From an uncultured Eubacteriales bacterium (GTDB lineage Bacteria > Bacillota > Clostridia > Christensenellales > Aristaeellaceae): a DNA stretch of 64,000 nt. Below the pieces are notes generated by a model that was not told where the DNA came from, made no database searches, and was given only the letters and a program-made list of their open reading frames with translations. Shown here in pieces: positions 5,815-28,929 of the stretch (positions are counted from its first letter, which is position 1; each line of letters starts with the position of its first letter). The translations under genes and the position numbers were made by a program. Location: contig CACWVN010000022.1 of assembly GCA_902764285.1 (NCBI GenBank), positions 1,446 to 65,445 on the forward strand, read 5' to 3'.

Positions 5815-6273
5815 TTACTCCTTTTCTTCATTCGATTCATTATTGACTGCCTGCCTCGTGTCTTCCACGATATCGGCAAGCGTTGTGGATCTGAGTTTCT
5901 CTTCCATAGCTTTCTGTGCATCAATGAGACGCTGATCCAACACCTTATGGATGTTTCTGCCCACAGGGCAGTCCGGATTCGGCTGCTCATGGAAATGGAA
6001 AAGGCCCTCCTCCGTATCTACACTGCCAACGGCTTTGTAGATGTCGTAAAGCGTGATCTCATCAAGCCGCTTTGTAAGCTCTGCGCCGCTGCTGCCACGC
6101 TGCGTCTGCACAATACCGGCTTCCCGTAACTGTGAAATGACTGTGCGGACGATGACAGGATTCACCCCGATGCTTCCGGCGAGGAATTCACTGTTCACCC
6201 GATCCATATCCTTGAAGTAGTCGATGGCCGTGATGATGTGAACCCCGATTGTAAATTTGCTTCCGATCTGCAT
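5815..6273 (-). CDS. Rrf2 family transcriptional regulator
   Basis: The N-terminal winged-helix region (FTIGVHIITAI...LAGSIGVNPVIVRTVISQLREAGIV) is typical of Rrf2/BadM regulators. Confidence 0.8.
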   Translation of the reverse strand: MQIGSKFTIGVHIITAIDYFKDMDRVNSEFLAGSIGVNPVIVRTVISQLREAGIVQTQRGSSGAELTKRLDEITLYDIYKAVGSVDTEEGLFHFHEQPNPDCPVGRNIHKVLDQRLIDAQKAMEEKLRSTTLADIVEDTRQAVNNESNEEKE

Positions 6274-6311
6274 TTTTCACCTCCACACATATTTTATCAG
6301 CTGACGGTTGT

Positions 6312-6340
6312 AATATATCACATTACAGCTAAGTTGTCAA
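6312..6340 (-). promoter_or_regulatory. sigma-A type promoter of the Rrf2 operon with an overlapping inverted repeat
   Basis: On the minus strand there is TTGACA (6335-6340), a 17-nt spacer, then TATATT (6312-6317). The TGTAAT-N7-ATTACA palindrome overlaps the -10 element. Confidence 0.45.
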
Positions 6341-6452
6341 TACCTATATTACATCTTTTGCAAAAAAAAGAAAGTTCTCAACCAACAGAATGGAATGTGC
6401 TTTTCCGAAGGCTCGAACGAGCTCTTTTTGCCCGAAAAACGAGCCCTCGCCA

Positions 6453-7650
6453 TTATGCCGCTGCCACCCGTATCAAAGACGTAGTGCAGTTTTCGAGGAA
6501 GGTCAGCGAGGCCAGTTTGTCCTGGAAGGCAGCCAGCTTCTGCTTGCGAGTGCGCTCTACGCCAATGGCCTTGATCTCGGCAAATTCCGCTTTGAGTCCG
6601 TCTAGGAATAAAGGATCGATGACCTTGTGGATGTTCTCAATGGAGGTATAGTGCATGCCGCCCTTGCGTCGGGTTTCCGGGTTCAGGGTGGATTCAAATA
6701 CCGCGCCAAAGATGGTTGGGCTGATCTCCGACCAGTCGAAGTCCTTGGAGGCCTTGGTCAGCAGCAGGTCGAAGATTTCCTCGTTCAGCGCGGGAATCTC
6801 GATGTTTTCATCGGAAAACAGGCCGCCGTTCACATAGGGGAACGCTGCCAGCTCCGGGTCGTCCTCCGCGAGATAGGGGTCTCGTGCGTGCTCGTCCTGA
6901 TCGAGCACCTTGAACAGGTCGATCAGTGCGCGGCGGGCGTTTTTCAGCCCGCGGTGCTTCATGTAATCGTGGAACATCAACCGCTTGCCAAAGATGCCCG
7001 CGTCCTCCGCGTACAGGCAGAACACCAGCCGCACGCACAGCGCGTTCAGGCTCTTTTGCGCGCGCGCTCTCCGGGTCCTTGTACTGCTTGTAGAAGGCGT
7101 CGTACAACCGCCCCACCAGCTCGCCGGCCTTGATGGAGATTTCCATTTCCTTCTTGAGGTTCTCGCTGCCAGTGTCCACCAGGAAGCTGAGACGGTGGTA
7201 TTCCTTTTCCAGGTCGCTGAGCTTCACGATCTCCGGCTCAGCGTTGGGCTGGTTCATGTTGTGGATGTGGAATTCCTGGAAGTTGGAGACCACGATCCAG
7301 CGCGGGTTCATGTTGTGGGGCAAGAGACCCGCGTAGCGCCGCGCCTGCTGGAAGGGTGAGAGTAGGCTGCCATCGCTCTGCCTATATCCTTTTTTCAGGT
7401 CAACATCGAGGCTCTTCTGCTCAATCAGCACGCTAGTTGCGTGTATGTAGCCGTCAATGAAGATCGTCGTGCCGGTCTGGTCATTCTTGACCTTGTACTC
7501 AAAGGAAATCTATTTCTCCGGAGATTCCACACCATAGACATCATGAAGAAGCTGACGCCAGAAATTCTGAGCATCTTGTTTCTCGTCTCCACGGTTAATC
7601 CAATCAGCTACAAATTGTTTTGCAGCATTCCGCTGCCGAACGTTATCCAT
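6453..7650 (-). pseudogene. MmeI-family type IIL restriction-modification enzyme, N-terminal remnant (in-frame stop, frameshift, 3' truncation)
   Basis: The translation parallels the MmeI N-terminal region (RLVFCLYAEDAGIF, LAAFPYVNGGLF, DWSEISPTIFGAVFES, MHYTSIENI, LASLTFL). It breaks off just before the expected DPACGxGNFL SAM motif. There is a TAG stop near 7511 and a frame change near 7058-7067. Confidence 0.8.
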
Positions 7651-7746
7651 GATCGCACCGCCTCTGCGAGTTGTGTGATTCCATTATAACTGAATCAAGG
7701 GGTTGAAGCAAGACATTTGGTAATTTGACACACAGACTCTAACCCT

Positions 7747-8064
7747 CTAGATATTCTCCGATGATAAAAAGCTTCGAACATAGCTTGAAGAATCCCCCTT
7801 TGCACCAGTCCCGATTGGCCTAAATAGCCATGAGTTATCTTCCTTAATAAACTCACATAAATTCATAATCTCTGTTGCCGGGAGGTTTTTGAATAAGAAT
7901 GGTTCAATCCGCCAAGGACCAAAGTTTGTAAACATATGGAAATGGTGCAATTGAGCAAAGCATTGTTGCCTACTGATCGCATCATAGATATATGCAAATA
8001 CTTGTATCCGTTTTGTGCTTGTCTTCACTTTTTTAAGCGTAATGATGATGCTATCATCTACCAA
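7747..8064 (-). pseudogene. TerD-like domain, C-terminal fragment
   Basis: AT-rich 105-aa ORF. The pattern KRIQVFAYIYDAISRQQCFAQL ... WLFRPIGTGAKGD resembles the last half of TerD-family stress proteins, and no N-terminal half is found upstream. Confidence 0.35.
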
Positions 8065-8209
8065 ACTAGCTTATCATGACATTGCCCCCTCAAACGTGGT
8101 GATTGTTAGTATACCATGGGGGAATGCTCTGGGAGTGACATGATTAGGGCATTCAAATGAAAAGATAAGCGCCAATCCGGGGAATTGTGGTGGTGTAGCT
8201 GATTTCGAT

Positions 8210-9067
8210 TTATGACTGAAACCTCCTTTCTAACGCTTGGAACCATGCAAGATACCGTTTCTCGTCGCTCCTGTGGCAGTAGCAAAAAAAGTGCTCCACG
8301 GCGGCATTGTCTGAGATGGGCACATAGGCGCGCTGGGGATTGCGCCCGTACAGGCGAAGCGTCAGGTCCGTGGCGAAGTGCGGCAGGGACGAGGCGCGGA
8401 CGAGTTCATGCAGCGCTTCCAGTCCGTTTTGCAGCAGGAAATGGGCGTTGGGCATCTGCTGACGGACGATGTGATCCCAATAGCCTACCTCACTGGCCAT
8501 CAGGAAGCTCTCGCCGTCCATGTCTTTAAAGGAACACTCCGACTTGTCGGCGATGCGGTGTTCTAACGGGACAGCGAAGAGCAGGTGCTCCGAACCGCAC
8601 GGATGACAGGACAGGCCGTCGTCATCCAACTTGTGATTGAGGATAATCATCTGGTAAATACCCTGATTGAGCCCTTCAAACAGCTCCTCCTCTGTGCGCA
8701 GCTCAGTGGCGATGGTCATGCCCGGGTAGAGGGAGGATAGCAGCGGGTTCAGCTCCATCATCGGCCCCGGCGAGATCATCCCCACCGCCAGCATGCGGGA
8801 TGAGCGATCCAATGCTCGAACGCGGTTCACCATGTCCTGCTCCTGCATCAAAATCTGCCGCGCACACTCCGCGGCCAGGCGTCCATTCTCATTGAGATGG
8901 ACGCGATTTTTTGTGCGCTCGAACAGTTTGACGCCAAAGATGTCCTCCAGCTTCTGCATGGAGCGCGTGAGGGTCGGCTGGGTCAGGTGCAGCTTTTCAG
9001 AGGCAGCGGAAAGCGTGCCGCACTCATAGACGGCGGTCAGCTGCTCCAGCAGATAGGTGTCGATCAT
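8210..9067 (-). CDS. LysR family transcriptional regulator
   Basis: N-terminal helix-turn-helix region (LEQLTAVYECGTLSAASEKLHLTQPTLTRSMQKLE) followed by a LysR substrate-binding-type C-terminus. Confidence 0.85.
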   Translation of the reverse strand: MIDTYLLEQLTAVYECGTLSAASEKLHLTQPTLTRSMQKLEDIFGVKLFERTKNRVHLNENGRLAAECARQILMQEQDMVNRVRALDRSSRMLAVGMISPGPMMELNPLLSSLYPGMTIATELRTEEELFEGLNQGIYQMIILNHKLDDDGLSCHPCGSEHLLFAVPLEHRIADKSECSFKDMDGESFLMASEVGYWDHIVRQQMPNAHFLLQNGLEALHELVRASSLPHFATDLTLRLYGRNPQRAYVPISDNAAVEHFFCYCHRSDEKRYLAWFQALERRFQS

Positions 9068-9083
9068 GCGCTCATCTCCTATG

Positions 9084-9100
9084 TATACGTCATACGTATA
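9084..9100. promoter_or_regulatory. LysR-box-like palindrome in a divergent promoter region
   Basis: Perfect inverted repeat TATACGT-CAT-ACGTATA located between the LysR gene and the divergent flavodoxin gene. Confidence 0.4.
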
Positions 9101-9191
9101 TTAGAATACGACATTTGCATTGTACTTTCCTTCAAGACCCTGTTAAAATATATACAAGTCAAGCATGGAAATTTCAAGGGAGGGCAACCGA

Positions 9192-9815
9192 ATGAATACC
9201 CTGATCGCTTGGTTCTCCTGGAGCGGAAATACCCGGGACATCGCGGAGCGTATCGCCCGGAAGACCCGTGGCGAGCTGTTCCGGATCGAACGCGAGGTGC
9301 CCTACAGCACGGACTACAGCATCTGCGCGTACAGGGAGGCCAGGGAGGAAGCTGACAGGCAGCTGAGGCCTGCCATCAAGGAACCGTTGCCGGAGATCGC
9401 GGATTACGACGCGGTGATCATCGCCTTTCCGATATGGTGGTACACCATGCCCGCGCCGGTCAAGACCTTTCTGGAGCGCTGGCCGGACTGGCAGGGCAAG
9501 CGGCTGTATGTGTTCGCCAACTCCTACACCGACGACAGGAGCCAGTTTATGAACGCTATGGTCGCGGCAATGGAATGCGCGAATGGCGCGGATGTGCGTC
9601 CTGGTCTATACAATAAAGACATCGACAAGCTCTGTAGTTGGGTAAAAGAGAATGGATTCACAAGGAGGCGGCAATATGAAAAAGCTGATAACGATGATCC
9701 TTGCGGCGCTGGCGCTGACCGTGGGATCGCTTGCGGAAGGAGCGGAGACGACCATGAAGATTCCCCAGACGGGCATGACGAAGCCTGTGCCCACGGCCTA
9801 TACCGCGCCGTCTGA
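9192..9815 (+). CDS. flavodoxin family protein (the ORF runs on into the next gene)
   Basis: Contains MNTLIAWFSWSGNTRDIAERIA and FPIWWYTMPAPVKTF motifs. Homology appears to end near WVKENGF, but no stop occurs until 9815. Confidence 0.6.
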   Translation: MNTLIAWFSWSGNTRDIAERIARKTRGELFRIEREVPYSTDYSICAYREAREEADRQLRPAIKEPLPEIADYDAVIIAFPIWWYTMPAPVKTFLERWPDWQGKRLYVFANSYTDDRSQFMNAMVAAMECANGADVRPGLYNKDIDKLCSWVKENGFTRRRQYEKADNDDPCGAGADRGIACGRSGDDHEDSPDGHDEACAHGLYRAV

Positions 9816-10641
9816 GCATCCCGGTACCGTCGTGCAGGTGGAGTACGATTCCCAGGACTATCTTCGGGGCGACGCGCCGGTGAGCAAGACCGCCTGGGTA
9901 TACCTGCCCTATGGCTACGACGAGAACGATACTGAAACCCGCTATGACATCCTCTACCTGATGCACGGCTGGGGCGGCGCTGCAGGGGAGTACTTCTACA
10001 TGGGCGACGGCATGATCAAAAACATGCTGGACCACATGATCGAGAATGGCGAGATCCGGCCCGTCATCGCCGTGTCCGCCACCTTCTACAACGCGAACAG
10101 CGACCGGGATTTCGGCGCTTCCGAGGACGCGCTGAGGGAGTTCCACAGGGATTTCACCGACCACCTGATGCCCGCGGTCGAGGGGACGTTTCACACCTAC
10201 GCCGCCTCCACCTCTCTGGAGGACCTGGCGGCATCGCGGGATCACCGGGCATTCGGGGGCTTCTCGCTGGGCAGCGTGACCACCTGGATGGAATTCTGCC
10301 ATGATACGGATTATATCCGGTACTTCCTGCCCATGAGCGGTTCCAGCTGGTACTACGGCACCTATGGCGATTTCCAGACCGTGCGCAATGTGGACTATGT
10401 CCAGCAGATCGTCGAGGAAAACGACCTGAACGAGCGGGGCTACTTCATCTACCACGCTGTGGGCACCGAGGATGTGGTCAAGAGCCAGACCCTGATGATG
10501 GCGGACGAGATGATGTCCAGGGACGGCGTGTTCCCGCCGGAGCACTACGTTTTCTACCAGAAGGAAGGCGGCCACCACGACTTCGACGCCGTACAGGAAT
10601 TCATGTTCAACGCCCTGCCGCTGTTCTTTCCGCAGGGCTGA
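9676..10641 (+). CDS. secreted alpha/beta hydrolase (esterase family)
   Basis: AGGAGG ribosome-binding site, signal peptide MKKLITMILAALALTVGSLA, and a GFSLG nucleophile elbow. Confidence 0.75.
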   Translation: MKKLITMILAALALTVGSLAEGAETTMKIPQTGMTKPVPTAYTAPSEHPGTVVQVEYDSQDYLRGDAPVSKTAWVYLPYGYDENDTETRYDILYLMHGWGGAAGEYFYMGDGMIKNMLDHMIENGEIRPVIAVSATFYNANSDRDFGASEDALREFHRDFTDHLMPAVEGTFHTYAASTSLEDLAASRDHRAFGGFSLGSVTTWMEFCHDTDYIRYFLPMSGSSWYYGTYGDFQTVRNVDYVQQIVEENDLNERGYFIYHAVGTEDVVKSQTLMMADEMMSRDGVFPPEHYVFYQKEGGHHDFDAVQEFMFNALPLFFPQG

Positions 10642-10970
10642 ACGATAGATCGAAAAGGAGGCAAACACCATGAAGAAACTGCTTACCGTACTGCTGATCG
10701 TTGCAATGCTTTTCAGCGCTCTTACCGCGCTCGCGGAGGAGGCGGATACTACCCTAAACCTTTCCGACATCGGCATGTTTTCCGCGGGCGGCACGGTGAC
10801 CGAACCCGTGGAGGGCGAGTACGACCCGACCCAGAACTGGATGGACGTGAACCGCCCAGGCAACACCGCCCATGTGGATCACGCCAACGTGCTCTACATG
10901 ACGCCTGCCAAGGACAACGGCAACCCCATCGTGTACCTGCACGGCTACGGCCAGAGTCGCATGGGCTGGC

Positions 10971-11059
10971 AAGGCAACCCTGCCGCTGGCAGGGTTGTCC
11001 CAGCCTGAAAGGCTGGGATGGCGCGTCACGATTCATAGAATCGGGACGTGCCACCTGAC
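10971..11059 (+). repeat. triple-hairpin element A
   Basis: AAGG; CAACCCTGCC-GCT-GGCAGGGTTG; CCCAGCC-TGAAA-GGCTGGG; 7-nt spacer; GTCACGATTC-ATA-GAATCGGGAC; tail GTGCCACCTG. Confidence 0.8.
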
Positions 11060-11235
11060 ACGCCGGACGGGCGCGACGGCTGGGCCCAGATGTTCCTGCG
11101 CAACGGCCACGCCGCCTATCTGGTGGATCAACCCGGACGCGGCGAGGCGGGCGCGGCGGCCTCCATGACCACGGACGGCTTCCTGGACGCCTGGGCCGAG
11201 GATTCCAAGGACTACAAGCCCGGTGACCAGGCCAG

Positions 11236-11326
11236 AAGGCGCGAAACCGAAGGTTTCGCGGTCTGGCGCATGGCGCCAGACTGGCTTGGCTGAATCGGAG
11301 ATTCAGGCAAGCCACCGCACACCCAT
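11236..11326 (+). repeat. triple-hairpin element B
   Basis: AAGG; CGCGAAACC-GAA-GGTTTCGCG; GTCTGGCGC-ATG-GCGCCAGAC; TG; GCTTGGCTGAATC-GGA-GATTCAGGCAAGC; tail CACCGCAC. Confidence 0.8.
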
Positions 11327-11821
11327 TTCCGCATCGGGCGCGTGGCCCCGGAGCGCTACGAGGGCAGTCAGTTCCCGGAGGGTGAGGCGGCGCAGGACCA
11401 GTTCTTCCGCCAGATGACGCCCAACACTACCACCTTCGACATGGCTAAGTCCGCCGCCGCGGTGTCCGCGGTGCTGGCGGAGGTGAAGGAACGCACCGGC
11501 AACAAGCCCATCTTCATCACCCATTCTCAGGGCGGCGCGGTCGGCTGGGACGTGGATGTAGAGAACATCAGCGCCATCATCGCCATCGAGCCCGGCGGAG
11601 CGCCCGAGGTGGACAGCGAGCAGTACAACAGGCTGCTGGAGGCTAAGATCCCGATCATCTTCTATTTCGGTGACTACATGGAGAACGGTCCCGAGGACAT
11701 CATGTCCAGCGGCTTCTGGAGCGGCATCAAGGCCGGTTCCTTCGCCTTCGCCGAGGCCTACAACGCCGCGGGCGGCGACGCCACCGTCATCGACCTGCCG
11801 GCCATCGGCATCACCGGCAAC

Positions 11822-11908
11822 ATGCGGTGCCGCGTCTCAAATCTCTGATTTGAGCCGTGGCAGTCTGGCCTTCGGCCAGACCAACCTTGCCTTTGGCAAG
11901 GTTGCCTT
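11822..11908 (-). repeat. triple-hairpin element C (inverted relative to A, B and D)
   Basis: Plus strand reads CTCAAATC-TCT-GATTTGAG; 8-nt spacer; GTCTGGCC-TTC-GGCCAGAC; CAACCTTGCC-TTT-GGCAAGGTTG; CCTT. The reverse complement gives the same AAGG / hairpin a / hairpin b / spacer / hairpin c / ACGCGGCACCGC order. Confidence 0.8.
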
Positions 11909-11993
11909 CACTTCATGTTCCAGGAGCTGAACAACCGGGAGATCGCCGACCACATCGAGAACTGGCTGGGCGAGCACGGCCTGAATTGATACG

Positions 11994-12800
11994 ATGGCAG
12001 AAAAGATAATGGCTCTACTGACAGCACTCATTCTGATAGCTTCCTTCGCGCTTGCGGAGGGGGCTGTCACCACGGGAAGTGTTGAGGATCGAGGCTTCGT
12101 GCTGAACAACGTGCTGCACGACCCTGAGCGCGAAGACATTCACTTCAGTCTGTATGTCCCCGAAAGCTATGACAGCTCGCAGCCCGTGCCGCTGTACGTC
12201 GCGCTGCCGGGCTGGGAGGGGCTGTACTTCCAGGACGTGGGCGCGGACCTGAAATGGGAGACGATGCCCTTCGCCGCACGGGAATACGACCCGGACATGA
12301 TCATCGCCTCCGCACAGTTGAATGACTGGGGCATGACCTCCGCGCAGGATGCCGTCGCGCTTACAGAATATCTGATGAGTGCCTACAGCATCGACCCGAA
12401 CCGCGTCTACCTGAGCGGCTATTCCGGCGGCGGGGAGACGGGCTCCCTCGTCATGGAGCTGCGCCCGGAGCTTTACGCGGCCTACCTGATGATGGCCTCA
12501 CAATGGGACGGGGGGTTGGAGCCGCTGGCGGAGGCCCGGACCCCGGTCTACATGATCATCGGCGAGGACGACAGCTACTATGGCTCCGAGTCCCTGAAAA
12601 ACGCCTACGCCGAGCTTCACACGTTGTATGAGACAAAAGGACTTTCAGACGCGGAGATCGACGACATTCTGGTATTGAATGTCAAGGATGCCGACTGGTT
12701 CAAAGAGCGTGGTATTTCCGACCAGCACGGCGGCGGAATGGCCTTCCCGGAGGAACCGGGGCTGCTGGAATGGTTTTTCTCGAAGACAAAGAAAGGATGA
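11994..12800 (+). CDS. secreted alpha/beta hydrolase (esterase/depolymerase type)
   Basis: Signal peptide followed by a GYSGG nucleophile elbow. Confidence 0.7.
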   Translation: MAEKIMALLTALILIASFALAEGAVTTGSVEDRGFVLNNVLHDPEREDIHFSLYVPESYDSSQPVPLYVALPGWEGLYFQDVGADLKWETMPFAAREYDPDMIIASAQLNDWGMTSAQDAVALTEYLMSAYSIDPNRVYLSGYSGGGETGSLVMELRPELYAAYLMMASQWDGGLEPLAEARTPVYMIIGEDDSYYGSESLKNAYAELHTLYETKGLSDAEIDDILVLNVKDADWFKERGISDQHGGGMAFPEEPGLLEWFFSKTKKG

Positions 12801-12806
12801 TATGAA

Positions 12807-13346
12807 ATGAAGAAGATTATCGCTGTAATGCTTATGTGCCTGCTCCTCGTTCCCGCCGCCCTGGCGGAGAACGCCATCGTCGTATACTTCTCCGCCACCG
12901 GCACGACCGAACAGATTGCCAATGGCATTGCGGCACAGACCGGCGCCGATATGTTCCCCATCGAGCCCGTGGTGCCCTACACCGACGACGACCTGAACTG
13001 GCGCGACCCCGATAGCCGGGTCTGCGTGGAGCACGAGGCTGGTGAGGCGCCGGTGGAACTGGTGTCCGTGGAGGTGCCCAGCTGGGCGGATTACGATACC
13101 GTGTACATCGGCTATCCCATCTGGTGGCAGGACGCCTCCTGGGTGATGGACAATTTCGTGACCGCCAACGACTTCACCGGCAAGACGGTGATCCCCTTCT
13201 GCACCTCCCAGGCCTCCGGTTATGGCGAGAGCGGTGAGCGCCTGGCCGCGAAGGCCGGAACGGGAAACTGGATCGTCGGCGGAAATTTCTTTGGCGAAGC
13301 CGCCGATGAGGAGATCTCTGAGTGGCTGAACGGATTAGAGAAGTGA
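12807..13346 (+). CDS. flavodoxin with an N-terminal signal peptide
   Basis: MKKIIAVMLMCLLLVPAALA followed by VVYFSATGTTEQIA and YPIWWQDASW flavodoxin motifs. Confidence 0.7.
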   Translation: MKKIIAVMLMCLLLVPAALAENAIVVYFSATGTTEQIANGIAAQTGADMFPIEPVVPYTDDDLNWRDPDSRVCVEHEAGEAPVELVSVEVPSWADYDTVYIGYPIWWQDASWVMDNFVTANDFTGKTVIPFCTSQASGYGESGERLAAKAGTGNWIVGGNFFGEAADEEISEWLNGLEK

Positions 13347-13365
13347 GCATGAAGGGGGTTATGTC

Positions 13366-13998
13366 GTGAAGAAATCAAAAGCGCTTCTATTCATCGTTCT
13401 CATGTTGAGCGTGCCTCTTTCCGCCATGGCGGAGAGCCTGGGCAATTCCATCATCATCTACTTTGACTACAGCGAGAACATCGTCACCGACGGTCTGGAC
13501 GTGGACGCCGTCAGCTCGGCCAGCGTTGCAGAGGGCCCGGGCGTGAGGGATATCGGCAATCTGCTGGTGATGGTCGACCTGATCGAACAGCGCTCCGGAG
13601 CTGCGATCTATCCGCTTCATATCACGGAAAAGTACGCGCCGATGTACATGGACATGGTGGACGGCGCGCGTGCCGACAAGGAGAACGACCGGCAGTTCAC
13701 CTTTGAGGAATCCCTGCCGGACCTGTCGGACGTGGACACCGTGTTCTTCGGTTCTCCCATCTGGTGGTATGACATGCCCCAGCCCGTGGTCAACTTCTTC
13801 CAGCAGGTCGACCTGTCCGGCAAGCGCTTCATGTATTTCAGCATCAACCGCGGCAGCGGCAACAGCGGCGTCATCGAGCGCCTCAAAGAGTTCCAGCCCG
13901 GGCTGACCGTGGCGGCGGAATACTCCCTGGACGCCATGCAGACCAACGAAAGCGCTGCCGAAGAGTTCAACGCCTGGCTGGACTCCCTCAGCCGATAA
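13366..13998 (+). CDS. flavodoxin-like protein with an N-terminal signal peptide
   Basis: GTG start, signal peptide MKKSKALLFIVLMLSVPLSAMA, and an SPIWWYDMPQPV motif. Confidence 0.65.
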   Translation: MKKSKALLFIVLMLSVPLSAMAESLGNSIIIYFDYSENIVTDGLDVDAVSSASVAEGPGVRDIGNLLVMVDLIEQRSGAAIYPLHITEKYAPMYMDMVDGARADKENDRQFTFEESLPDLSDVDTVFFGSPIWWYDMPQPVVNFFQQVDLSGKRFMYFSINRGSGNSGVIERLKEFQPGLTVAAEYSLDAMQTNESAAEEFNAWLDSLSR

Positions 13999-14001
13999 TT
14001 C

Positions 14002-14949
14002 ATGAAGAAGCTGATGATATGGCTGGCGCTGCCAGCAATGATTTGTGCGCTATTCATGATGGCGGAGGCAGAACCGATGATCTGGGACGAGAATACGGGC
14101 ATCAATGAAGTGATTGCCTACTCCGGCTTCGGGGACTGGGGACGGCTGATCTTCCCGGTGGACGAGGGCTACTACAGCGGCAGCACGCTCAAGGACCTGC
14201 GCCTGACCTGGTACAGCAACATTCAGCCCGCAAAGACGGTGGAGATCGTCAATTACTTCAAAGAAATGGTCGACGTCGGCGAGACAGTTTTCTACGACAT
14301 CTACACCGACGCGGAGAAGGCCGCTGATCCATGGAAGGCGGACACAGGACTGTTCTTCTTCCGAGGCAATCCCGGCGCGAAGTTCGCCATCTGCAACGCG
14401 GGCGGCGGGTTTGCCTACGTCGGTGCCATGCACGACAGCTTTCCCCACGCGCTGGAGCTGAGCAGGAAGGGTTACAACGCCTTTGCGCTGATCTACCGCC
14501 CCGGCGCGCAGACCGCCTGCGAGGATTTGGCGCGGGCCATCGCGTTCATCCACGAGCACGCGGATGAGCTGGAAGTGGATGTCAGCGACTACTCCCTCTG
14601 GGGCGGCAGTGCGGGCGCTCGAATGGCGGCGTGGCTGGGCAGCTACGGCACGGCGGCCTTTGGCGAGGCGGAATATCCCCGCCCCGGCGCGGTGATCATG
14701 CAGTACACCGGCCTCGGCGAGGTCTACGGCAACGAGCCGCCCACCTACAACTGTGTGGGCACCAATGACGGCATCGCCAGCTACCGCACCATGGAAAGGC
14801 GTATCGCGACAATCCAGGGCAACGGCACCGACGCCATGATCGAGGTGTTCCCCGGTTTGTCCCACGGCTTCGGACTGGGCACCGGCACCGTGGCCGAAGG
14901 CTGGATCGACAACGCGGTTTCCTTCTGGGAAAGAAATATGAATCCATAA
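14002..14949 (+). CDS. alpha/beta hydrolase
   Basis: Hydrophobic N-terminus and a GGSAGA nucleophile elbow, in the same operon-like array as its neighbours. Confidence 0.7.
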   Translation: MKKLMIWLALPAMICALFMMAEAEPMIWDENTGINEVIAYSGFGDWGRLIFPVDEGYYSGSTLKDLRLTWYSNIQPAKTVEIVNYFKEMVDVGETVFYDIYTDAEKAADPWKADTGLFFFRGNPGAKFAICNAGGGFAYVGAMHDSFPHALELSRKGYNAFALIYRPGAQTACEDLARAIAFIHEHADELEVDVSDYSLWGGSAGARMAAWLGSYGTAAFGEAEYPRPGAVIMQYTGLGEVYGNEPPTYNCVGTNDGIASYRTMERRIATIQGNGTDAMIEVFPGLSHGFGLGTGTVAEGWIDNAVSFWERNMNP

Positions 14950-14966
14950 AGAGGGGGAGCATCAAC

Positions 14967-15329
14967 ATGAAAGAACAGGTTTTGAAGCAGTCTCAGGTAT
15001 TCTGGAAGGGGCTTGAAAGGGCCGATTCGGCGGCCATGCGTTCTGTGTGTGACGATAAGTGCATCTTTGTTCATATCGGCGGGAACTGCGATCTGGATAA
15101 GGAGATGGAAGCCTTTGAACAGAAGGTTTTCCAGCCCACAAAGATCACCCTGCACGGCCAGGAAGCCCGCCTGTTCGGCGACGTGGCCATCGTCATCAGC
15201 GACGTGGACTACGGCCTGCTGCTGGGCGGCCAGCCCACAACCCATCATTTCACCACGACGGAGGTTTTCCAGAAACAGGGCGACGAGTGGAAGCTGATCC
15301 AGTTCACTTTCACGGCCCTGGTGCATTGA
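14967..15329 (+). CDS. NTF2-like (SnoaL/DUF4440-type) protein
   Basis: 120-aa ORF whose size and sequence pattern are typical of nuclear transport factor 2 family proteins. Confidence 0.5.
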   Translation: MKEQVLKQSQVFWKGLERADSAAMRSVCDDKCIFVHIGGNCDLDKEMEAFEQKVFQPTKITLHGQEARLFGDVAIVISDVDYGLLLGGQPTTHHFTTTEVFQKQGDEWKLIQFTFTALVH

Positions 15330-15337
15330 GGCGCGAT

Positions 15338-16074
15338 ATGGACAGACCAAAGATCATCTGCCACATTCTGCAAAGCGTGGACGGAAACATCGACGGCGAC
15401 TTCTTCACCCTGCCTGAACTGAGCCCCGCGTACCGGGCGTTTTCCCGCATCCGGGAAGAATTCGCCTGTGATGCCGTTATCAGCGGGGCGACGACTGCCG
15501 CGGAGATCTATCGCGGCAGATTCGTGGACAAACTGCCGACGAGCTCCGAACGCTGGCCCCGCACGGACCGGAAAGCCGCAAGCGCGGAGAAGTACGCAGT
15601 TGTCATCGACGGCACAGGCACCGTTCGCTGGGAGAGCGGCAGCGTCGAGCGCAAAGGTTGCTTTGCCTTTGGCAAAGCAAGTCGCTTCGCGACTGGCGAC
15701 GGCTCGATTCTGCGAATCGAGACGCGCCACCGGACGCCTACATCAGCCACCTCCGCAAGGCGGGAGTATCCTATATCTTTGCCGGGAAGGACAGCCTGGA
15801 CCTGGCCCTGGCGGCGCGAAAGCTGAAAGAGTTGTTCGGCATCCAGTCCATGCTGCTCTCAGGCGGCGGGGTCGTGGACTGGTCCTTCCTGCAAGCCGGT
15901 CTGATCGACGAAATCAGCCTGGTCGTTCCCCCGGTGATCGATGGCGGGGTCAGGCTGCCCTCCGCCTTCGACGATTCACCGTTAGCTGTCGGCCACGCGC
16001 CGGTCGCGCTACATCTGACAGATGTGCAACGCATGGAAGGAGACGCCCTGTGGCTTCGTTATGTGCCCACATAG
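15338..16074 (+). pseudogene. RibD C-terminal domain / dihydrofolate-reductase-like protein interrupted by an 80-nt hairpin element
   Basis: The N-terminal part (MDRPKIICHILQSVDGNIDG) is in frame 2 and the C-terminal part (AYISHLRKAGVSYIFAG...LLSGGGVV...LWLRYV) is in frame 1. They are separated by element D. Confidence 0.7.
15654..15733 (+). repeat. triple-hairpin element D
   Basis: AAGG; TTGCTTTGCC-TTT-GGCAAAGCAA; GTCGC-TTC-GCGAC; 9-nt spacer; CTCGATTC-TGC-GAATCGAG; tail ACGCGCCACCGG. Confidence 0.8.
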
Positions 16075-24134: not shown

Positions 24135-24790
24135 GTTCTGAACCTCCGATTGTCGAATGGTCGTGTTCTTTTCGTTCAAGTATTGTCAACCTCCAAAAGT
24201 TTTACTTTTCATTTGGCGGCTGCTGTGCTATACTATTCTTGCAACGGGATAGCAAGCGCGGCAGCCGCCGCGCGGACTGTCTTTCAAAACGCTCTTGTCT
24301 GCCAGGACGAGAGCTTTTTGTTTTTATCCGCTGCCTCGTTGATGCTGAAACCAGCTTTGTATTCTCCCATTGCGTCACCTCCTTCCGCTGAGAGGATAGA
24401 CTTATCCCTTGGTGTGATTTTTGCTCCGTTCTTCCCACCCGCATCTGGCCGATGCCCACAGGCTTTCGCCTCCCCGCTCCCGCCGGGCTGTCCCCATTGC
24501 GTGATCCGCTTTCGCGGGCTGTGGCTGGACAGGAGTATCATTATCCCCATCATGCGTCCTGGCGATCAGGCCCTGCCGCGGACCCGACTGGCACCTCCGT
24601 GGATCGCTCCCCGCTTGTCAGCGGATCGTCGCGCCGGGATGCCTTCGCTCGGCATGATGGGAACGTAGGTTGGAGAACCTTATGAAGTTGTCTGTGATGA
24701 TGAACTCTACTGTTCATTATCACAGCTTGCATTATAATGTACATCTGTGTTCATGTCAAGAAGAAATGAGCAGTTACGCACATATTTAAC

Positions 24791-28863: not shown

Positions 28864-28908
28864 TTGACATATATAGATAATCGATATATAATTGATATAT
28901 AGATAATC
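28864..28908 (+). promoter_or_regulatory. promoter with direct-repeat operator upstream of the PadR gene
   Basis: TTGACA (28864-28869), a 17-nt spacer, then TATAAT (28887-28892). The 14-bp direct repeat ATATATAGATAATC occurs at 28869 and 28895. Confidence 0.5.
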
Positions 28909-28929
28909 TATATAAAGGAGAGCGATATA

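Follow-up and report, generated by a model that had tools for sequence, protein, structure and literature searches.

Three copies of a small palindromic repeat interrupt the gene of a secreted alpha/beta-hydrolase in a 64,000-nucleotide (nt) stretch of DNA from an uncultured Eubacteriales bacterium (contig CACWVN010000022.1 of assembly GCA_902764285.1). This whole stretch is referred to as the window, and coordinates are positions within it. We consider it likely that three hits by this repeat, a new 28-codon palindromic module that resembles the Rickettsia palindromic elements (RPEs), have recently inactivated the hydrolase, which is an accessory gene.

The inserts are copies of a small, non-autonomous repeat that forms three perfect DNA hairpins between 5'-AAGG and CACC-3' and that is found in either orientation, in intergenic DNA as well as in genes. 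According to this explanation, with a unit length that is usually divisible by three (3n) and about half of its reading phases free of stops, many intragenic copies would survive as translated inserts of 26-28 amino acids (aa). The copies in the hydrolase gene lie in stop-reading phases or orientation and at conserved or catalytic positions, and would have inactivated it in this way; translation would end at 11006 and give a 112-aa product. The retained reading frame would mostly be a consequence of the 3n unit length of the family, and the gene would look otherwise intact because the insertions are young relative to its private branch and because its allele resides in a recently spread, decaying mobile island. 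Judging from its sequence, the hydrolase gene is most likely a young pseudogene, and the repeat probably moves by a route that depends on hairpins or single-stranded DNA.

Three insertions in an otherwise intact hydrolase gene

The gene and its insertions are located as follows:

10670..11989, + strand: gene of a secreted alpha/beta-hydrolase, Abhydrolase_6-like, with three element interruptions (intact orthologs: 356 aa)
10971..11055, + strand: insertion 1, triple-hairpin core AAGG...CACC of 85 nt, with TGA at 11006-11008 and TAG at 11036-11038; net gain 84 nt
11236..11316, + strand: insertion 2, element core of 81 nt, with TGA at 11291-11293; net gain 81 nt
11826..11908, - strand: insertion 3, inverted element core of 83 nt, with TGA at 11846-11848; net gain 84 nt

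A map of open reading frames (ORFs) divides the gene into four coding pieces in the same frame (10670-11008, 11048-11293, 11342-11848 and a tail to 11989). The search with the joined pieces returned thousands of homologs, the closest of which are 356 aa long and up to 94% identical, and two intact orthologs are syntenic, sharing the gene order LysR, flavodoxin, esterase, hydrolase, S9 peptidase, flavodoxins. With these, the remaining ~1056 nt of the gene align codon for codon, there is no further stop or insertion/deletion (indel) outside the inserts in the DNA alignment, and the signal peptide, the HSQGG motif and H331 are all present. A preliminary description of the window, made from its letters alone, had anticipated this much: one hydrolase gene at 10670-11989, three interruptions, four segments in one frame, an intact remainder, and the survival of the signal peptide, the HSQGG motif and the GN-H region. 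Its equal insert length of 87 nt proved wrong, as DNA alignment with empty-site orthologs gives net gains of 84, 81 and 84 nt; the in-frame reading of the window extends over 439 codons versus 356 in the orthologs, a total excess of 249 nt. The TGA that it assigned to each insert is found in all three, at 11006, 11291 and 11846, and insertion 1 also carries TAG as a second in-frame stop.

TGA is the commonest genuine stop in the window, where it ends 15 of the 32 long ORFs with high GC content at third codon positions (GC3), and it also ends the orthologs. Given this use of TGA and the additional TAG in insertion 1, neither stop-codon reassignment nor selenocysteine recoding applies. Insertion 1 is fully open in another reading phase. 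In insertion 2, the TGA is part of a stem whose pairing is perfect, and in insertion 3 it results when hairpin 3, conserved across the family, is read in the reverse direction; for these reasons, the stops of insertions 2 and 3 were probably present from the moment of insertion.

The junctions proposed in the preliminary description are correct only in part. THF is kept after insertion 2, and residues of the intact protein are lost or replaced at all three sites: L101-T102 at insertion 1, where one target C is missing 4-5 nt past the 3' end of the element; W161-Y162 at insertion 2, where the flanking codons TGG TAT/TAC have become AGG...CAC (W161R, Y162H); and S330, the residue preceding the presumed catalytic H331, at insertion 3, where one nucleotide is extra (T at 11823 on the + strand, 2 nt past the element's 3' end). 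Among 47 homologs with 68-94% identity, W161, Y162, S330 and H331 are invariant and T102 is nearly so. In the alignment with the orthologs, no contiguous deletion restores the ancestral hydrolase sequence.

A family of triple-hairpin repeats

In each insert, three hairpins follow one another, the fold having a z-score between -6.6 and -7.6 relative to shuffled sequences, and a simple hairpin scan of the window revealed a fourth such unit at ~15658-15724. The four copies align with many compensatory changes, and when the covariance model derived from this alignment is applied unfiltered to the 64 kb, it recovers exactly these four. With the ends of the element set as 5'-AAGG...CACC-3', their cores measure 85, 81, 83 and 78 nt; the modal core length of the family is 84 nt (28 codons), with variants of 77-88 nt. 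Across 32 distinct copies, 98.2% of the pair cells hold standard pairs, compared with 32-42% in slid controls, double-sided changes occur in 27 of the 32 pairs, and G-U is seen in only 2 of about 1000 cells. Such Watson-Crick-only pairing, which works on both strands, together with the existence of an inverted copy, points to a DNA palindrome rather than to an RNA-specific structure.

Terminal inverted repeats are absent: CACC-3' is not the reverse complement of 5'-AAGG, and the inverted repeats that the element does have are its internal hairpins. Target-site duplications are absent from the two clean comparisons of filled and empty sites (RibD_C and PheS, see below), and the hydrolase junctions show small losses or gains. 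Nor is there a conserved target motif at six sites, namely the three in the hydrolase gene and that in RibD_C, which were compared with empty-site orthologs, and those in PheS and GltB, where the empty site was inferred; their left flanks end in TGGC, CCAG, AGTG, CGCA, GGGC and TGCG, without consensus. When the window, the region and nine related loci were scanned against Rfam, at both gathering and E-value thresholds, no family matched the element; a Transposase-2 RNA match was weak (19 bits, E=0.48) and was dismissed. As full-text literature searches, which were not exhaustive, did not return it either, the repeat family appears to be undescribed.

Outside the window, a degenerate hairpin-3 pattern matched 25 loci in species-representative genomes, all of them uncultured Clostridiales or Clostridia from the rumen (RUG14130, 14340, 14431, 14473 and 12424) and rabbit gut, and 11 loci in metagenomes of the Joint Genome Institute (JGI) and others; a scan of viral contigs with the same pattern gave 0 matches. 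The covariance model confirmed full-length copies at other loci, and more than 40 copies outside the window are now recognized. In several genomes the copies are physically clustered, as seen in the window, L019/L035, L036, L052 and the RUG14130 loci. In RUG14130, the 84-nt unit is a module within intergenic mosaics of different hairpins, which are repeated, ~400-500 nt long, without Rfam match and often located at contig ends (L009, L012, L015, L016, L017, L021, L024 and L029); they also contain a second, AT-richer variant of 77 nt, inverted and 45-135 nt away. In a rabbit-gut genome, the gene for RNase P RNA is followed by one copy at a distance of ~200 nt (L025, 920-1261 and 1468-1563); L014 and L028 from the same genome share the immediate flanks of this copy, so that it may be part of a larger repeat.

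These properties bear on the frame-keeping in the hydrolase gene, which the preliminary description had found hard to square with pseudogenisation. Under a uniform model, the chance that all three net lengths are multiples of three is 1/27; given that about half of the subfamilies have 3n cores, it rises to ~1/8, and with a modal length of 28 codons little of the argument is left. Of the six reading phases of a copy, 54% are on average free of stops, so three stop-carrying hits are unremarkable as well.

Copies inside other protein-coding genes

The fourth copy in the window also lies in a gene:

15338..16074, + strand: RibD_C-family gene, a pseudogene in the window through a 46-nt deletion; in the other carriers intact, with the element, at 260 aa
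15654..15731, + strand: fourth copy, core of 78 nt, present in relatives as an identical 78 nt, in frame
15732..15733, + strand: junction of the 46-nt deletion, directly 3' of copy 4, with GCCACCG/GCCAGCG microhomology; private to the window, causing a frameshift

Two relatives (P0150 and P0168) encode proteins of 260 aa instead of the usual 234 and carry the identical 78 nt, translated as KGCFAFGKASRFATGDGSILRIETRH. Compared with an empty-site ortholog, which differs only by a synonymous change, the copy is a clean 78-nt insertion. The 46 nt are kept in 7 of 8 carrier contigs, with an intact 260-aa protein wherever the gene is complete. L048 keeps them too, and has instead a different, 77-nt deletion (15585-15661) that removes the first 8 nt of copy 4. 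Copy 4 had been considered as an insertion whose length is not a multiple of three, which is ruled out by this combination of a clean 78-nt insertion and a private 46-nt deletion.

In-frame, stop-free copies are also found in housekeeping genes, namely in GltB (the glutamate synthase large chain), in the adjacent GltD-like subunit and in PheS, both in RUG14473 and in independent JGI rumen contigs; the GC3 of these copy-bearing genes is 0.84-0.98. By comparison with solved structures, the net gain in GltB is 28 aa, and in PheS an insert of 28 aa separates CKGKG from GCRMC. Removal of the 84-nt core from PheS yields the canonical motif C-x-x-C-K-G-S-G-C-x-x-C, which makes CKG^SGC the site of a clean insertion without duplication. 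Two further hosts, an HNH endonuclease and a 78-aa protein (P0121 and P0122), came from a search with peptides of the translated element; the HNH contig has a reverse-oriented copy, open in frame, in an upstream ORF. This search of a 5.8-billion protein set returned only these two matches; since even GltB and PheS were missed, it is a poor guide to how common the family is. On a phage-like contig with SSB and HNH genes (L052, 1613-2193), two neighbouring genes each contain a copy; the copies are 163 nt apart, in opposite orientations and both open in frame. Prophages may carry the elements along, despite the negative scan of viral contigs. To judge from these sequences, relatives keep the family open and in frame in essential genes, which indicates that it is translated there rather than removed.

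Recency, genomic context and population alleles

By the Nei-Gojobori method, the ratio of nonsynonymous to synonymous substitution rates (dN/dS) between the window allele and the intact hydrolase orthologs is 0.05-0.09, the same as between intact orthologs and near the values of neighbouring genes. Private changes amount to 3 nonsynonymous versus 15 synonymous ones, or 5:16 when more alleles are included; from a Poisson calculation on the 3:15 counts, we estimate that neutral evolution covers less than ~10% of the private branch. The 112-aa N-terminal fragment has exact matches in 12 contigs, which come from no fewer than 8 independent assemblies of metagenomes; carriers include the STEW19 samples behind ERZ28615874 and the assemblies ERZ1038451 and ERZ27280001. 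The 1320-nt interrupted allele is 100% identical in the 8 loci examined (L044-L051). Very recent insertion, one of the options raised in the preliminary description, is supported by the low dN/dS, the few private changes and this identity.

The identity extends over a block from ~8340 to 15733 (also 6200-15733), found in at least 8 independent rumen metagenome assemblies with mismatches only at its edges (5842-6199 and 8222-8333). One carrier, L047, instead has helix-turn-helix/transposase-like and phage-integrase genes upstream. The block has the appearance of a mobile accessory island that spread recently and that comprises genes for esterase, flavodoxin and reductase functions. This island is decaying, as otherwise identical carriers have suffered independent deletions:

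L045: 68 nt, window 8336-8403, in LysR
L045: 40 nt, window 10053-10092, in the esterase gene
L048: 54 nt, window 13061-13114, in a flavodoxin gene
L048: 77 nt, window 15585-15661, in RibD_C, taking the 5' end of copy 4
Window: 46 nt, just past copy 4, in RibD_C

The element itself seems to be a hotspot for deletions.

The preliminary description had suggested a check for polymorphism in the presence or absence of each insert. Five allele classes do coexist:

No insertion: L001 and L003 (intact, 356 aa) and L054 (57-nt in-frame deletion, 337 aa)
Insertion 2 only: L055
Insertion 3 only: L058
Insertions 2 and 3: L056 and L057
All three insertions: the window and L044-L051

None of the sampled alleles has a stop-free version of any of the three insertions, and insertion-bearing alleles have substitutions of their own at positions that are otherwise invariant: L056 carries G41S and W147S, and L058 carries P86L. 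Two candidates for partial-insertion alleles were rejected. The 337-aa protein P0012 is not truncated by insertion 3 and has a 57-nt in-frame deletion instead. L006 (RUG12424) is not an insertion-3-only allele, its contig being chimeric or rearranged inside the element; L058 provides the clean example. As to L054 (2933-3946), its deletion removes 19 aa (window 11589-11645) and is accompanied by G84S at an invariant position; this may be another decaying allele. In L006 (2177-2339), hairpins 3 and 2 of insertion 3 follow the same junction and, in place of the 3' end of the gene, give way to a different long hairpin and AT-rich sequence; either the assembly is chimeric here, or copies of the element have rearranged with one another.

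Elsewhere in the window, a pemK RNA motif (Rfam RF02913, 42.5 bits, above the gathering score) at 24456-24544 on the - strand suggests a toxin-antitoxin leader, and 28869-28914 consists of AT-rich, overlapping short palindromes, TATATAGATAATCGATATATAATTGATATATAGATAATCTATATA, which stand out in the otherwise GC-rich window and are unrelated to the element family.

Alternative explanations

Several observations do not sit easily with recent inactivation by chance hits. First, a change of -1 nt beside the 85-nt core and one of +1 nt beside the 83-nt core, both within 5 nt of the element's 3' end, bring either insertion to a net 84 nt, and these changes are the sole indels in the hydrolase gene beyond the cores. 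They resemble frame selection or a mechanistic rule, and a pseudogene model leaves them unexplained; however, frame selection would be senseless after a stop-bearing insertion, and the changes may have arisen as a side effect of how the element inserts, or by chance. Second, three copies of unrelated subfamilies (no more than 72-78% identical to any other sampled copy) share one 1-kb gene, and ~6 kb of intergenic DNA in the window is without any copy. Calculated from the four copy positions under uniform placement, the chance of three copies within one 1-kb gene, with the other 59 kb empty, is ~1e-3. Local hopping is ruled out as the cause of this clustering, for the three hydrolase copies are not mutually closest relatives. 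Third, haplotypes with differences 7-25 nt away and with 5-8% divergence in their flanks carry each insertion in 100% identical form, with the same junction changes. The probability of finding no differences is about 0.001-0.01 per case, and copy 4 follows the same pattern; recombination with mismatch repair could yield such islands of identity hugging the element, the alternative being a homing-like process. Fourth, insertion-bearing alleles form a sizeable fraction of the sampled alleles, yet the dN/dS of the gene is ~0.06, and their excess of nonsynonymous private changes is suggestive without being significant (20:40 versus 5:24 in the intact L001 and L003; Fisher p=0.14). Lastly, a mobilising enzyme did not emerge: ORF clustering over 36 loci with 8-kb flanks gave no recurrent transposase ORF near the copies, and tblastn with IS200 TnpA and YafM gave no matches in 375 kb.

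Part of this would be accommodated if the repeats were copied into homologous empty sites by a homing-like or site-specific process with near-zero co-conversion of the flanks and perhaps with a frame-keeping rule, to which the -1 and +1 edits beside the 85- and 83-nt cores would testify, the hydrolase gene being a preferred target or a reversible switch. If true, this would account for diverged haplotypes that share the same insertions down to the edits at the junctions, and in its extreme version the interrupted gene would still yield a product. We regard it as unlikely, yet as deserving some weight.

Another, distinctly unlikely scenario is that the insertions were at first tolerated as translated, stop-free inserts and acquired their stops later, which would make the -1 and +1 changes relics of frame selection. 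Such compensation beside cores of 85 and 83 nt, in a gene free of other indels, is what this scenario predicts; moreover, the family is translated elsewhere, and insertion 1 has an open phase. It is difficult to reconcile, however, with stops that were probably there from the outset in insertions 2 and 3, with the lack of stop-free versions among the sampled alleles, and with the positions of the inserts, as 28 additional residues are unlikely to be tolerated just before H331 or in place of W161-Y162.

Next in plausibility, and improbable too, is active targeting, in which the elements are copied between alleles in a homing-like manner or re-inserted at specific sites, perhaps as a reversible on/off switch of the hydrolase. 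The sharing of identical elements and junction changes between haplotypes that differ 7-25 nt away, in copy 4 as in the hydrolase, speaks for it, as does the clustering of copies in several genomes. Yet homologous recombination of the ordinary kind could suffice, if the population recombines heavily and mismatch repair restores the single-nucleotide differences in the flanks; no associated endonuclease or transposase was found in the searches above, the six sites lack a common target motif, and excision cannot bring back the lost residues. Of the preliminary description's suggestion of targeted insertion, then, what stands is that some targeting or regional preference may exist, given the unrelated copies in one gene and the identical insertions on diverged haplotypes.

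That the interrupted gene is functional, with the elements either spliced from its mRNA or skipped by the ribosome in the manner of T4 gene 60 or mitochondrial byps, we consider very improbable. Its appeal lies in the signature of strong purifying selection in the flanking segments, the 3n net lengths, the persistence of insertion alleles on several haplotypes with otherwise open segments, and a GGC before the TGA of insertion 2 that recurs in frame 15 nt later, past the inner hairpin. But this GGC pair spans only 15 nt inside hairpin 3, and skipping it would leave the remainder of the element in place. Direct reading gives no comparable codons in the other two inserts: insertion 1, with its two different stops, has no in-frame GCC after them, and insertion 3 has no CTC landing codon. 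Splicing fares no better, as Rfam yields no ribozyme or intron match and even the smallest self-splicing introns are far larger than these elements; furthermore, G-U pairs are nearly absent from the hairpins, one of the copies has the opposite orientation, T102, W161, Y162 and S330 cannot be recovered by removing a contiguous block, and the open frames of the copies in GltB, GltD, PheS and RibD_C would be needless if the element were removed. In addition, insertion-bearing alleles are altered at invariant residues, and the surrounding island is decaying. The removal or bypass raised in the preliminary description therefore finds no support in the junctions, the Watson-Crick-only hairpins or the copies translated in relatives.

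Finally, mis-assembly of repeats into the hydrolase gene, as might be suspected from the RUG14130 repeats that often end contigs and from the chimeric L006, has a negligible probability, since the same 1320-nt allele comes from different assemblers and samples (SPAdes-type scaffolds, MEGAHIT k141 contigs, Logan) and the partial-insertion alleles share the same junctions.

Comparison with known systems

RPEs are palindromic repeats that occur in frame in the protein-coding genes of Rickettsia (Ogata et al., 2000, as summarised in PMC10969869). Going by that summary, they and the present family are alike in being small, non-autonomous and palindromic, in residing in frame in unrelated genes, including housekeeping genes, in being translated there, and in having intergenic copies as well. 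By the same account, the present family differs in its hosts, which are rumen and gut Clostridia, in its length of 78-88 nt versus about 100-150 nt, and in its three separate perfect hairpins; it also differs in that the hydrolase copies carry stops and break their gene. As a multi-copy palindrome that resides at unrelated loci, in frame and free of stops (GltB, GltD, PheS, RibD_C, HNH and a small phage-like ORF), the family belongs to the functional class of RPE-like elements. We would limit this likeness to function, without claiming membership in the Rickettsia RPE families proper, and the stop-bearing hydrolase copies would fall outside it.

Classical miniature inverted-repeat transposable elements (Correia, ERIC, BOX, RUP and the Coxiella QMITEs) are likewise short, multi-copy, structured and non-coding, with occasional intragenic fusions or disruptions. 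Unlike these, the present family has neither terminal inverted repeats nor target-site duplications, and no parent insertion sequence was identified in the 8-kb flanks. It has features in common with the palindrome-associated elements of the IS200/IS605 group and with the repetitive extragenic palindromes (REPs), with their bacterial interspersed mosaic elements (BIMEs) and REP-associated tyrosine transposases (RAYTs), which are also defined by hairpins, lack inverted termini and target duplications, and form mosaics, as seen here in RUG14130. Recognition of hairpins in single-stranded DNA would be a plausible route of mobility. Nevertheless, the consensus of the family is without the GTAG or CGTC tag of REP/BIME elements, and REPs are extragenic, whereas its copies are often intragenic; at the 5' end, the six sites compared show no conserved 4-5-nt target of the IS200/IS605 kind, and no Y1/HUH transposase was found in 375 kb.

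Translational bypass in T4 gene 60 and the byps of Magnusiomyces mitochondria share with the hydrolase gene a short structured insert with an in-frame stop in an otherwise intact, conserved gene. They differ from it by take-off and landing codons, which are not matched across the element here, and the present family has one inverted copy, pairing at the DNA level and relatives that translate the element. Lastly, the IStrons of Clostridia and group I and II introns are mobile gene insertions, too, that can leave their host gene functional, but the present elements are 10-20 times smaller and show neither a ribozyme (Rfam negative) nor a splicing signature.

Implications

The hydrolase itself is an ordinary result, a recently broken accessory gene in a decaying mobile island; the part worth pursuing is the repeat family rather than the broken gene. 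For annotators of rumen metagenome-assembled genomes, it provides a recognisable cause of split genes and odd insertions. The coexisting alleles with none, one, two or all three of the insertions form a natural presence/absence series in which the spread of an element between alleles can be studied. Compared with what is described for Rickettsia, the family seems to be the Clostridial counterpart of the RPEs, a DNA palindrome that forms a translated 28-codon module in essential enzymes such as PheS and glutamate synthase, and it extends the occurrence of selfish DNA inside proteins to abundant Firmicutes of the gut and rumen.

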